Positions 3 through 4,005 of a DNA stretch of 26,087 nt are shown here, in pieces. The DNA is from Chthoniobacterales bacterium. GTDB lineage: Bacteria; Verrucomicrobiota; Verrucomicrobiia; Chthoniobacterales; JBDTJR01. The stretch lies in contig JBDSIH010000252.1 of assembly GCA_039918055.1 (NCBI GenBank), forward strand, positions 1-26,087, in the 5' to 3' direction. Every line of letters starts with the position of its first letter. The stretch's first letter is position 1. The position numbers and the translations under genes were made by a program. The notes below the pieces were generated by a model that was not told where the DNA came from, did not search any database, and worked only from the letters and a program-made list of their open reading frames with translations.

Positions 3-866
3 GTAATGACGTGCACACTCGCTCAAGCCGCAAAAGTGCCGGAAATCGTGGCGGTGACCCCGGCGGACCGCACTGGCCGCGTCCACCCCGCACTACTTGC
101 CGCACTTCACCTTTGCGGGGCGACGGAAGTTTACCGCATTGGCGGCGCACAGGCCATCGCGGCCATTTCTCTGGGAACAAAAACCATCGCACCCGTGGAT
201 AAGATTTTCGGTCCCGGAAACGCCTACGTCGTGGAGGCAAAGCGCCAGGTGTTCGGACGCGTTGCCGTCGATCTCCTGCCAGGCCCGAGCGAAATTCTCA
301 TTATTGCCGACAGCGGCGCCAATGCCGCCTGGATCGCCTCCGACTTATTGGCACAAGCGGAACACGGGCATGGCAGCATCGCCATCCTCGTCAGTAATTC
401 GGCAAGTCTCCTCACGAAAGTGGAAAAAGAAGTGCTGCGACAATCCGTGACGCTCAATCGTCAGGATGCCCTGCGCGAATCCCTGCGCCACACTTTTCTC
501 GTTCAGGTAAAAACGCTGAATGACGCCGTTGACCTCTTTAATAATTTTGCGCCCGAGCATCTTTCCCTCGCAGTTCGCAATCCGCAAAAGATGGCCAAAG
601 ACATCCGCACTTCCGGCGCGATTTTTCTCGGTGATATATCTCCCGTAGTCGGCGGAGATTTTGTCGCGGGACCCAGCCACGAACTGCCCACCGGCGGCGC
701 GGGCAAATCCTTTCCCGGATTGACCGTGGATCAATTTCAGCGCCGCACGAGCCTGGTGGAGTTTAATAAAGAATCTCTCCGCCGCTCATTAAGCGCCATT
801 CGCATATTCAGCCAGATCGAGGGGCTGGATGCCCACGGTCGCTCCGCTTCCATTCGTCTGGAGTAA
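3..866 (+). CDS. hisD: Histidinol dehydrogenase, C-terminal part; gene begins upstream of the window
   Basis: Motifs GGAQAIAA, DKIFGPGNAYV, PGPSE, DLLAQAEH (metal ligands), APEHL (catalytic Glu-His) and PSHELPT. The frame is open to the window edge and about 140 N-terminal residues of a typical HisD are missing. Confidence 0.96.
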   Translation, partial: VMTCTLAQAAKVPEIVAVTPADRTGRVHPALLAALHLCGATEVYRIGGAQAIAAISLGTKTIAPVDKIFGPGNAYVVEAKRQVFGRVAVDLLPGPSEILIIADSGANAAWIASDLLAQAEHGHGSIAILVSNSASLLTKVEKEVLRQSVTLNRQDALRESLRHTFLVQVKTLNDAVDLFNNFAPEHLSLAVRNPQKMAKDIRTSGAIFLGDISPVVGGDFVAGPSHELPTGGAGKSFPGLTVDQFQRRTSLVEFNKESLRRSLSAIRIFSQIEGLDAHGRSASIRLE

Positions 867-869
867 GCT

Positions 870-1709
870 ATGCTCTGGGAAACCGCCCGCAGAACGCTCG
901 ACCTCTCGGCGAAAGGCGTCATCATGGGCATTGTAAATGCCACGCCGGATTCGTTTTTCGATGGCGGCAGTTACGCCGATCCCACCTCCGCAATCGCGCA
1001 AGGGGAGCGGATGGCCGCTGAAGGCGCGTTGATTATTGATATTGGCGGCGAATCCACCCGTCCCGGCGCGCAGCCGGTGCCTGCGCAGGAGGAAATGCGG
1101 CGTGTTCTCCCTGTGATTCGCGGATTGCGGAAAAATCCGGATATCCTGCTCTCGATCGATACGTCCAAAGCCGAAGTGGCCCGTGCGGCCATTGCCGAGG
1201 GAGTGGATATTCTAAACGACGTCACCGCATTGCGCGGTGATCCGGCGATGATGGCCCTCGCGGCGGAAAGCAATGTCGGCGTTGTCCTCACACACATGCA
1301 GGGCACACCCCAGACGATGCAGGATAATCCGCACTACGAGGATGTCGTCGCAGAAGTGGGGAATTTCCTTCGACAGCAAACTGCCGAAGCCGTAGCATCA
1401 GGCATACGTCTCAACCGAATTATCGTGGACCCTGGAATTGGATTTGGAAAAACACTCGCGCACAATTTGCGCCTACTGCGTTCGCTTGAAGCTTTCGCAG
1501 AGCGTCCGGTATTGGTCGGATTCTCCCGTAAATCTTTTCTTGGGAAACTCGTCGGCTCCACGGAGCTGGAGGATCGCTTCTGGCCCGGGGTTGCGCTTAC
1601 GGCCTATTGCAGAAACAAAGGCGCGCTGATTTTCCGTGTGCATGAAGCACGGCCGCATTGCGACGCCATGCGGATGACCGAGTCGCTCATGGAGGGCCCT
1701 GCTTTATGA
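870..1709 (+). CDS. folP: Dihydropteroate synthase
   Basis: Motifs MGIVNATPDSFFDGG, IIDIGGESTRPG, SIDT, NDV, VDPGIGFGK, GFSRKSF and FRVHE. Starts 3 nt after the hisD stop. Confidence 0.97.
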   Translation: MLWETARRTLDLSAKGVIMGIVNATPDSFFDGGSYADPTSAIAQGERMAAEGALIIDIGGESTRPGAQPVPAQEEMRRVLPVIRGLRKNPDILLSIDTSKAEVARAAIAEGVDILNDVTALRGDPAMMALAAESNVGVVLTHMQGTPQTMQDNPHYEDVVAEVGNFLRQQTAEAVASGIRLNRIIVDPGIGFGKTLAHNLRLLRSLEAFAERPVLVGFSRKSFLGKLVGSTELEDRFWPGVALTAYCRNKGALIFRVHEARPHCDAMRMTESLMEGPAL

Positions 1710-2578
1710 TGAAACCCGTAATGGATTTCATTATAGCGAATTGGCGGGCGGCGGTGGAAATCCTGATCCTCACCACGGCGCTTTATTACAGTTATCTTTA
1801 TCTCAAGGGAACGCGTGGCGCGCGTATCCTCATCGGCATTGCCATCATCTTTCTCACGCTGACGGTTATTTCCGACGTGCTGTCGCTGGCCGTCATCACC
1901 GTCGTTATCAAAAACTTTTCGGTATTTCTTATTGTGGCTCTCGTCGTGATTTTCCAGCCGGAACTGCGGCGCGCACTTACCGAGCTTGGGAGCCATCATT
2001 TTTTCACGTCATCCTTTCAGAAGCGCGAAACGATTGAGGAAATTACGGATGCGGTATTCGAACTCTCCAGCAAAGGTTTCGGAGCGTTACTCGCCATCGA
2101 GCGCGAAATCAGCACGCGACCTTTTGCGGAAACCGGGGTGGATATAGACTGCGAATTTTCCAAGGAATTACTGCTCACGATTTTTCATCCCAAGACAGCG
2201 CTGCACGACGGCGGCGTCATTCTCCAGGGAGACCGCATTGCGGCGGCGGCGTGTATTTTCCCCCTCACCCAGCGTGATGACCTTGACCGTACCCTCGGCC
2301 TACGCCACCGCGCAGCCATAGGCCTGGCGGAGGAATCCGATTCCATTACCGTGGTAGTCTCCGAAGAGACGGGACATGTTTCGATTTGCCATAATGGCAT
2401 CATTGAACGCAATCTGAACGTCGATCGATTTCGCCGACGCCTCAGTCAACTGCTGCTGCTTGATAAATATGATGAAAAGGATACTCCTGAACAACTGGAA
2501 GGCGAAGATCGTATGTCTCGTTCTCGCCACACTGCTATGGTTTCTCATCAAACAGAACGTGGAACCGGTGAACTCTGA
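1706..2578 (+). CDS. dacA: Membrane-bound diadenylate cyclase CdaA/DacA (3 N-terminal TM helices plus DAC domain)
   Basis: Three hydrophobic N-terminal segments, IFQPELRRAL, GALLAIER, LHDGGVI (DGA-like) and GLRHRAAIG (RHR motif). Start placed at 1706 because ATG overlaps the folP stop (ATGA); the listed start at 1658 lies inside folP. Confidence 0.94.
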   Translation: MMKPVMDFIIANWRAAVEILILTTALYYSYLYLKGTRGARILIGIAIIFLTLTVISDVLSLAVITVVIKNFSVFLIVALVVIFQPELRRALTELGSHHFFTSSFQKRETIEEITDAVFELSSKGFGALLAIEREISTRPFAETGVDIDCEFSKELLLTIFHPKTALHDGGVILQGDRIAAAACIFPLTQRDDLDRTLGLRHRAAIGLAEESDSITVVVSEETGHVSICHNGIIERNLNVDRFRRRLSQLLLLDKYDEKDTPEQLEGEDRMSRSRHTAMVSHQTERGTGEL

Positions 2579-2621
2579 ACCCGGCTACCCACGCCCTCTG
2601 CTGAAACAACGTAATGACTGA
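2469..2621 (+). CDS. 50-aa single-TM peptide resembling the N-terminal anchor of CdaR/YbbR (absent from the ORF track because it is <60 aa)
   Basis: Read by hand: MMKRILLNNWKAKIVCLVLATLLWFLIKQNVEPVNSEPGYPRPLLKQRND*. The N-W-x-x-K-(hydrophobic)-LA-x-x-LW pattern and the position between cdaA and glmM match where cdaR normally lies. Overlaps cdaA by 110 nt and the glmM start by 8 nt. Confidence 0.7.
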   Translation: MMKRILLNNWKAKIVCLVLATLLWFLIKQNVEPVNSEPGYPRPLLKQRND

Positions 2622-4005
2622 TTCACAGCCCCGTAAGCTTTTCGGCACCGACGGCGTTCGCGGCATTGCCAATATCGAACCCGTAACTGCGGAAACCGCA
2701 CTGCGCCTTGGCCGTGCCGCCGCGCATGTCTTCAGCAACAGTGGAGGAATCCGCAAACCGCACGGATCGAAATGCAAGATCGTGATCGGCAAGGATACGC
2801 GCCTTTCCGGGTACATGCTGGAAAATGCCATCGTGGCCGGAATCACTTCCCTCGGAGTCGATGCCATCGTGATCGGGCCACTTCCCACGCCGGGCGTTGC
2901 CTACATTACCCGCTCCCTGCGCTGCGATGCGGGCATTGTGCTCTCCGCTTCGCACAACCCTTACGAAGACAACGGAATCAAATTTTTTAACCACGACGGC
3001 TACAAGCTCGACGACAGGATTGAGAAAAAAATCGAGCAGCTCGTCTTTGGCGGTGAGATCGAAGCGATCCGCCCCACGGCGACAAAAATCGGAAAAGCGA
3101 CTCGTATCGAAGACGCGCTCGGCCGCTATGTGGAATTTGCCAAACGCAGTTTCCCGCGTGGAATGACGCTGGAGTCGCTTCGCATCGCCGTGGATTGCGC
3201 AAACGGCGCGGCGTATAAATCCACGCCGTGTGTATTGCGCGAACTGGGTGCGGACAGCATTATTTATCACAATCATCCGAATGGCACGAACATCAATGGC
3301 AACTGCGGCAGCACGTATCCGGAGCAGATCCAGCGCTTCGTTCGCGATACGCATGCACACATTGGCATTACGCACGATGGGGATGCCGACCGCGTATTAC
3401 TCTGCGATGAAAAGGGTGAGCTCGTGGATGGCGATGAGATCATGGCGATTTCCGCGATTGATTTTCTCCGCAACGGCAGACTCTCCTCGAAAAAACTCGT
3501 GTCCACAATCATGAGCAATTACGGCCTCGAGGAGGCGCTCGCAGAACATGGCGGCGAAGTCATCCGCACGAAAGTCGGCGATCGTTACGTGATCGAGGAA
3601 ATGATGCGCTCCGATCTCAATGTCGGAGGCGAACAGAGCGGCCACATGATTTTCCGGGATTACTCCACGACCGGAGACGGCATCGTCAGCGCATTGCAGA
3701 TTCTACGCATCATGATCGAGACCGGAAAGCCGCTCAGCGAGCTGAAAAAGTGCCTGAAGAAATATCCCCAGGCGCAGCGCAATTTGAAAGTTCGCGAGAA
3801 GCCCCCTATCGAAAGCCTTGATGAGGTGAATACACTTATTGAGAAAGCGGAGAAAACGCTCAACGGCAAAGGCCGTGTCCTGCTTCGCTACTCCGGCACG
3901 GAACCCAAGATCCGCCTTCTCATCGAAGGCCGGGACGAAGAGGTCATCGGAAAACACGCGGACGGAATCGCGACCGCGCTTCAGCGTGCCATCGGCGTGG
4001 AATAA
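2614..4005 (+). CDS. glmM: Phosphoglucosamine mutase
   Basis: FGTDGVRG, GKDTRLSG, SASHNP (phosphoserine loop), DGDADR (metal loop), GGEQSGH, RYSGTEP. Confidence 0.98.
   Translation: MTDSQPRKLFGTDGVRGIANIEPVTAETALRLGRAAAHVFSNSGGIRKPHGSKCKIVIGKDTRLSGYMLENAIVAGITSLGVDAIVIGPLPTPGVAYITRSLRCDAGIVLSASHNPYEDNGIKFFNHDGYKLDDRIEKKIEQLVFGGEIEAIRPTATKIGKATRIEDALGRYVEFAKRSFPRGMTLESLRIAVDCANGAAYKSTPCVLRELGADSIIYHNHPNGTNINGNCGSTYPEQIQRFVRDTHAHIGITHDGDADRVLLCDEKGELVDGDEIMAISAIDFLRNGRLSSKKLVSTIMSNYGLEEALAEHGGEVIRTKVGDRYVIEEMMRSDLNVGGEQSGHMIFRDYSTTGDGIVSALQILRIMIETGKPLSELKKCLKKYPQAQRNLKVREKPPIESLDEVNTLIEKAEKTLNGKGRVLLRYSGTEPKIRLLIEGRDEEVIGKHADGIATALQRAIGVE

Follow-up and report, generated by a model that had tools for sequence, protein, structure and literature searches.

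A putative anchor-only CdaR peptide encoded at the end of the diadenylate cyclase gene cdaA in Verrucomicrobiae

The end of the diadenylate cyclase gene cdaA in a Chthoniobacterales bacterium (GCA_039918055.1, contig JBDSIH010000252.1) is overlapped on the same strand by a 50-codon open reading frame which runs on into the start of glmM, raising the questions of whether this frame is a gene, from which protein its product is descended and what that product might do beside the cyclase. The window, i.e. the whole stretch of DNA analysed, comprises 26,087 nucleotides, and the sequencing runs found to contain its sequence were of rhizosphere metagenome DNA only.

Positions 3-4005 of the window are occupied by genes of the + strand alone. 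A partial gene (3-866), which by eye resembles the C-terminal part of histidinol dehydrogenase, is followed after 3 nt by folP (dihydropteroate synthase, 870-1709; PF00809 Pterin_bind, E 4.3e-85), then by cdaA (1706-2578), coding for a membrane diadenylate cyclase of 290 amino acids that carries a transmembrane domain at its N-terminus and a DAC domain (TIGR00159, PF02457 and PF19293), by the frame in question (2469-2621, stop codon included), hereafter called mini-cdaR, and by glmM (phosphoglucosamine mutase, 2614-4005; TIGR01455, 594.6 bits, E 1e-178). Start and stop codons overlap at three junctions, an ATGA being common to the stop of folP and the start of cdaA. Mini-cdaR opens with the ATG at 2469, with a second ATG at 2472 and a TTG at 2460, ends with the TGA at 2619-2621 and is read in the +1 frame relative to cdaA ((2469-1706) mod 3 = 1); its product of 50 amino acids begins MMKRILLNNWKAKIVCLVLATLLWFLIKQNVEP. 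The initial annotation had given this frame the same start, stop and relative phase, with overlaps of 110 nt with cdaA and 8 nt with the start of glmM, and its coordinates are exact; the region read twice, as cdaA tail and as mini-cdaR, is accordingly 2469-2578 (+ strand). No promoter-like or terminator-like site was found on the + strand from folP to glmM, an Rfam search of the window gave no match anywhere, and no Shine-Dalgarno-like sequence precedes the mini-cdaR ATG, at which initiation would fall 110 nt inside cdaA.

A 50-codon ORF in an alternative frame is not significant by itself, since the first 6 kb of the window contain 68 ORFs of at least 30 amino acids; mini-cdaR stands above chance because it is conserved in relatives. 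CdaA was used to search 40 genomes of the order Chthoniobacterales, from 16 families, and 30 loci were fetched, all of which (30/30) have an ORF of 46-87 amino acids directly at the end of cdaA, starting with ATG in 29 loci and GTG in one. When the fetched loci and the genomes checked separately are counted together, the mini gene is present in 37 of 39 cdaA-bearing Chthoniobacterales genomes, and two genomes of the order that have no cdaA have no mini gene either. The consensus of the 30 sequences is MKxLxLxNWxAKLxSLxLAxxLWYLIKxNV, with W10, K13, A20 and W24 invariant. Both the overlap with cdaA (-25 to +122 nt, n=30) and the relative frame (+1 in 23 loci, +2 in 7) vary among the loci, so the peptide is not a shadow of cdaA coding. 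At codon positions 1, 2 and 3 of the mini frame the 30 sequences have 5246, 2696 and 7108 differences, respectively, and pN/pS across the 30 loci, in a comparison with synonymous sites near saturation, is 0.44 in the mini frame, against 0.94 in one of the alternative frames and 1.47 in the other. In the nine loci in which the conserved core lies wholly inside cdaA, pN/pS was 0.46 for the mini frame versus 1.55 when read in the cdaA frame; only the mini frame is thus under purifying selection where the two are shared, not both frames as in dual coding. Conservation of this frame under purifying selection, which the initial annotation had proposed as a check, was thus found across the order and, as described below, the class. 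On this comparative evidence 2469-2621 is identified as a genuine protein-coding gene of a putative folP-cdaA-mini-cdaR-glmM operon with overlapping start and stop codons, and the predicted anchor which it encodes is kept under purifying selection wherever cdaA is kept, with two exceptions.

The mini peptide had no match in Pfam or NCBIfam. With a profile built from the 30 mini peptides, the six-frame translations of a 201-genome sample of the phylum Verrucomicrobiota were searched, and outside the class Verrucomicrobiae the profile matched 34 genomes (E <= 0.01). The best match in 33 of these was the first ~30 codons of an ORF of roughly 320-450 amino acids directly downstream of cdaA; the four such ORFs that were tested have 2-3 YbbR domains each, and the full-length CdaR at one locus (L059) has the NCBI name "CdaR family protein". 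With these same-phylum proteins from sister classes as the comparison set, a comparison by hhalign of the mini alignment with 13 N-termini of full-length CdaR gave a probability of 98.4% (E 7e-15, 38 columns), and the control, in which the mini profile was compared with CdaA including its own N-terminal membrane helices, gave only 29% (E 6e-4), so that the match to CdaR is more than hydrophobic composition. An N-x3-K-x6-A-x3-W motif is common to the mini peptides and the full-length CdaR N-termini, the N-W-x-x-K of the former aligning with N8 and K12 of the latter. The full-length CdaR proteins of Kiritimatiellia and Lentisphaeria (e.g. that of L059) have this motif and the same position downstream of cdaA, but are 308-324 amino acids long with 2-3 YbbR domains, whereas the window protein ends at the point at which a first YbbR domain would otherwise start. 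Mini-cdaR leaves no room for a YbbR domain ahead of glmM, and the window genome as a whole has no significant match to this domain (PF07949, best E 0.45).

Sequence profile and gene position directly downstream of cdaA thus form the basis on which the predicted product of mini-cdaR is identified as the N-terminal anchor of CdaR (YbbR) with all YbbR domains gone. The earlier suggestion that CdaR is here cut down to its membrane anchor agrees with these results, both in the specific similarity to CdaR N-termini and in the loss of the YbbR domains from the genome. By descent and position the gene is cdaR, and as the domain that defines YbbR is missing, its product is best called an anchor-only CdaR variant. 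A split CdaR, with the YbbR domains encoded elsewhere, was considered and rejected: PF07949 is absent from the window genome and from 100 of 101 genomes of the order, the one borderline match among the 101 lying in a 742-amino-acid frame. It was also observed that the N-terminus of CdaA, FIIANWRAAVEILIL (1706-1790), weakly resembles that of the peptide, LLNNWKAKIVCLVL (2469-2550), which may reflect shared interface chemistry or chance.

Residues 1-13 of the peptide (2469-2507, +) form a basic flank, MMKRILLNNWKAK, which from its charge and the alignment is probably cytoplasmic and includes the conserved N-W-x-x-K motif. They are followed by the hydrophobic core of a single membrane helix, residues 14-27 (2508-2549, +), IVCLVLATLLWFLI, delimited by Kyte-Doolittle values and containing the invariant A20 and W24; the most hydrophobic stretch of 15 residues is 13-27 (mean Kyte-Doolittle value 2.53). 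Residues 28-50 (2550-2618, +) are a short, Pro-rich tail, variable in the alignment and probably periplasmic, which replaces the YbbR domains. One transmembrane helix and a short tail had been described at the outset, and the hydrophobic stretch followed by 23 residues bears this out, identifying the mini peptide as a predicted single-pass membrane peptide. Over 30 homologues the mean net charge is +3.0 before the helix and +0.6 after it, which fits the positive-inside rule and, we infer, an N-in, C-out insertion, as in CdaR. In one Akkermansia species (L043:610-1635, +) cdaA and the anchor are fused in frame, giving a protein of 342 amino acids that forms a cluster of three members, from several contigs, in public collections; the fusion matches the N-in topology, because a helix that follows the DAC domain, which is cytoplasmic, has to run through the membrane from its inner to its outer side.

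Among relatives the tail is 20-61 amino acids long, with 81% disorder-promoting residues. Many Chthoniobacterales tails have an aromatic-Pro pair 10-15 residues past the helix (in the window GYP, residues 39-41), and Akkermansiaceae tails (L039, L043-L051 and L053) end in a conserved EIRRSHP or EIRLSIPE, the former also being found at the end of the fused protein. The conserved tail features, EIRRSHP and the aromatic-Pro pair, therefore suggest some constraint outside the membrane and hint at a partner there.

With under about 60 amino acids and a single membrane helix the mini peptide belongs among the small membrane proteins. KdpF, AcrZ, MgrB and CydX, small proteins with one helix that serve larger membrane proteins as subunits or regulators, are similar to it in length (about 50 amino acids), in the single helix and in having their genes beside that of the presumed partner or in its operon. 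For these four partner binding has been demonstrated, whereas for the window peptide it is predicted, and to our knowledge none of them is derived from a larger regulator by domain loss.

The same 201 genomes, at least 64 of which belong to the class Verrucomicrobiae, were searched for cdaA and the YbbR domain. No YbbR domain was found in the Verrucomicrobiae genomes of this sample (at least 64), while 115 sampled genomes of other classes have one. The mini gene lies beside cdaA in 29 of 29 cdaA-bearing Verrucomicrobiae genomes, which come from the order of the window, from family f20 (17 genomes, 16 of them of the genus Akkermansia) and from three further families; the 35 Verrucomicrobiae genomes without cdaA gave a single match, marginal (E 0.0065) and broken by a stop. 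The absence of YbbR domains from the sampled genomes of the class marks the truncation as old, and as no full-length cdaR was found in any of them either, a point on which the initial annotation had made its reading depend, mini-cdaR is not a recently decayed remnant. Most simply read, this distribution reflects a single ancient event close to the base of the class, in which the YbbR domains were lost; thereafter the anchor would have been retained wherever the cyclase was.

The two exceptions are species of one genus with genomes of ~1.8-1.9 Mb (G013, locus L100, and G040, locus L102), from which the mini gene has been cleanly lost, so that cdaA abuts or overlaps glmM, while a sister species (L101) keeps the gene. 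The mini gene is therefore dispensable in some backgrounds. Compared with the CdaA of the sister, only S56A, L94F and R245C are common to the CdaA proteins of both species, too little to interpret as contacts.

Shortened forms were also found next to cdaA in gut Kiritimatiellia MAGs, where CdaR forms a graded series from full length (L076) through 170 amino acids with one YbbR domain (L075) and 142 amino acids with a low-complexity tail (L073) to anchor-only forms of 52-65 amino acids (L069, L070, L072 and L074). This CdaR truncation is independent of the one in Verrucomicrobiae. Several of the tails in L069, L070 and L072-L076 carry a common short MKG(T/A)VD-like motif.

As regards function, the nearest described systems are those of Firmicutes and Chlamydia. 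The CdaR of Firmicutes (B. subtilis, L. monocytogenes, S. aureus and S. pneumoniae) has the same place, after cdaA and before glmM, and likewise a short basic N-terminus and one membrane helix, the comparison being of descriptions and not of aligned sequences. Past the transmembrane domain, Firmicutes CdaR has four extracellular YbbR domains (PMC10636490), whereas the window peptide has 23 residues, and in streptococci and other Firmicutes there is a C-terminal disordered region (PMC12041528). Two sources (PMC8316131, PMC12974146), both with reference to Rismondo 2016, the primary study of the interaction, describe CdaR of Firmicutes as contacting the transmembrane domain of CdaA. The DacA-YbbR pair of Chlamydia trachomatis, a relative within the PVC group, likewise operates in a Gram-negative type envelope and consists, as here, of a cyclase with three transmembrane helices and a single-pass partner; chlamydial YbbR is a monotopic membrane protein and cyclase regulator, of which an anchor-only form is not described there (PMC12422730). 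In Chlamydia YbbR is needed for the activation of DacA, and an excess of membrane DacA without YbbR is harmful (PMC12422730). The effect of CdaR on CdaA is disputed even among Firmicutes, CdaR being an activator in B. subtilis, an inhibitor in Listeria and in S. aureus, and without effect in L. lactis (Table 1, PMC10117814), and no dissection of which part of CdaR carries the effect was found in the literature searched.

Because CdaR contacts the CdaA transmembrane domain and chlamydial YbbR is needed for DacA, a role as CdaA subunit is the most likely one, and the mini peptide is probably a CdaR-derived small subunit that binds the membrane domain of CdaA and permits or tunes its activity. 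It would insert N-in, C-out, as CdaR does, would bind the three-helix membrane domain of CdaA, which is the site of CdaR contact in Firmicutes, and would act as a small membrane subunit setting or permitting cyclase activity, while extracytoplasmic sensing would be lost or be reduced to a short disordered periplasmic tail. Co-occurrence with cdaA and the natural fusion give indirect support to the predicted binding and regulation of CdaA. A complex prediction for CdaA residues 1-254 with the peptide, run with custom alignments and without controls, gave a score of 0.01 and counts neither way.

It is unlikely, though not negligibly so, that the peptide is instead a CdaR-derived small membrane protein which no longer acts on the activity of CdaA, and which might hold GlmM or a c-di-AMP phosphodiesterase to the membrane or do no more than aid the insertion or stability of CdaA. 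Such a role would suit the translational link of mini-cdaR to glmM as well, through the 8-nt overlap in the window, and the two species that manage without the gene; the CdaR of S. pneumoniae, moreover, interacts also with Pde1 in two-hybrid assays, and the effects of depleting it go further than those seen when CdaA is depleted (bioRxiv 10.64898/2026.09.06.749708). The gene nevertheless stays with cdaA and not with glmM in Akkermansia, where the next gene codes for an AAA_26 domain protein (PF13500), the anchor is fused to CdaA in one species, and within the class the mini gene occurs only in genomes with cdaA, all of which argue for the predicted CdaA subunit.

A more far-reaching form of CdaA regulation is a tentative suggestion that we regard as somewhat more doubtful again, namely that helix and disordered periplasmic tail would make up a complete minimal envelope sensor, in which the tail would signal to CdaA, by way of the membrane helix, what state the periplasm or peptidoglycan is in. 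Signalling of this kind is reportedly carried out in B. subtilis by the disordered extracellular part of CdaR (Brogan 2025, as cited in bioRxiv 10.64898/2026.09.06.749708). If the sensor reading were true, the YbbR domains would be dispensable for the core signalling step, and a 50-amino-acid peptide could serve to tune how much c-di-AMP Akkermansia puts out.

Readings in which the frame has no function as a gene are improbable even when taken together. That it has no function and is a stub remaining from the 5' end of a deleted cdaR, open by chance, has precedent in that truncated cdaR does arise, a cdaR pseudogene being present in L. lactis MG1363 (PMC10117814), and the gene is fully deleted in two genomes. 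A stub is, however, very improbable and already contradicted by the conservation data, given a frame open with its own ATG in the 37 of 39 order genomes and in each of the 29 sampled class members with cdaA, over several orders and with cdaA identities as low as about 40-50%, four invariant residues, and a pN/pS of 0.44 with near-saturated synonymous sites.

The second of these readings turns on the cdaA tail in the overlap. CdaA scores 222 bits on TIGR00159 (cut-off 188.8), with residues 12-245 of 290 covered, and since the mini frame opens at codon 255, beyond the end of the profile match at residue 245, the overlap touches only a part of CdaA outside the family. Residues of about 255-290 are an unconserved tail which reads through the mini gene in another frame, and the position of the cdaA stop drifts among relatives. 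EQLEGE and VSHQ recur in this tail as the other-frame reading of NNWKAK and WFLIKQ, and only where the frames overlap. The overlapping tail would seem to be unconstrained read-through without a second functional product. A programmed frameshift joining CdaA to the anchor was rejected, as each homologue begins at an ATG of its own, with K or R as the next residue, and the variation between +1 and +2 frames and the several loci without overlap speak against it too. That the conservation is due instead to the C-terminal tail of cdaA or to some RNA or translation signal serving glmM, with the alternative frame open only as a by-product, could appeal to the window and eight further loci in which the core lies wholly inside cdaA and these tail strings recur, but is likewise highly improbable and already contradicted by the data, because the peptide is equally conserved in 19 loci with <=30 nt of the core overlapping cdaA and where there is no overlap, the cdaA-frame strings are tied to the overlap with a cdaA-frame pN/pS of 1.55, the window has no Rfam match, and Akkermansia retains the gene without glmM downstream.

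An anchor-only form of CdaR was not found described in full-text searches of the literature. The initial annotation had expected such a gene to be missed through size cut-offs, which proved right in part. A profile search of 1.84 billion representative proteins returned 422 clusters at E <= 0.001, the best 150 of the 422 being 37-154 amino acids long, and many relatives are already called as hypothetical proteins of 46-50 amino acids, some under the name "YbbR domain-containing"; the Akkermansia copies are "hypothetical protein" in RefSeq and "YbbR domain-containing protein" in one source. Size as such has thus not hidden the family, but copies with long overlaps are missing: of those looked up in a collection of 15 billion proteins, none of seven with overlaps of 110-116 nt was present, the peptide of the window included, while two of four short-overlap copies were. 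It is therefore suggested that the long same-strand overlap, and not size, hides them, i.e. that gene callers drop the long-overlap cases. For annotation, the lesson is that same-strand overlaps of 110-116 nt go with missing protein entries (0/7).

Expression data were available for a relative. The mini gene of Akkermansia adjoins cdaA, and three RNA-seq runs of an Akkermansia strain yielded assembled contigs over cdaA, the mini gene and the gene that follows, one contig spanning all three, with coverage falling to zero just upstream of cdaA. Co-transcription of cdaA and the mini gene in this relative is thereby indicated by assembled contigs, which have no bearing on translation.

Reports on how CdaR controls the essential c-di-AMP synthase conflict, activation being claimed in some and inhibition in others, and a whole class that has lost the YbbR domains and kept the anchor under selection would represent a natural deletion experiment on this question. 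It suggests that the membrane helix is the conserved part that does the work, and may offer a handle of 50 amino acids for testing. Akkermansia is a member of this class; a link between its c-di-AMP and STING-dependent responses of the host has been reported (PMC12901056), and a genetic handle on its cyclase would be useful.
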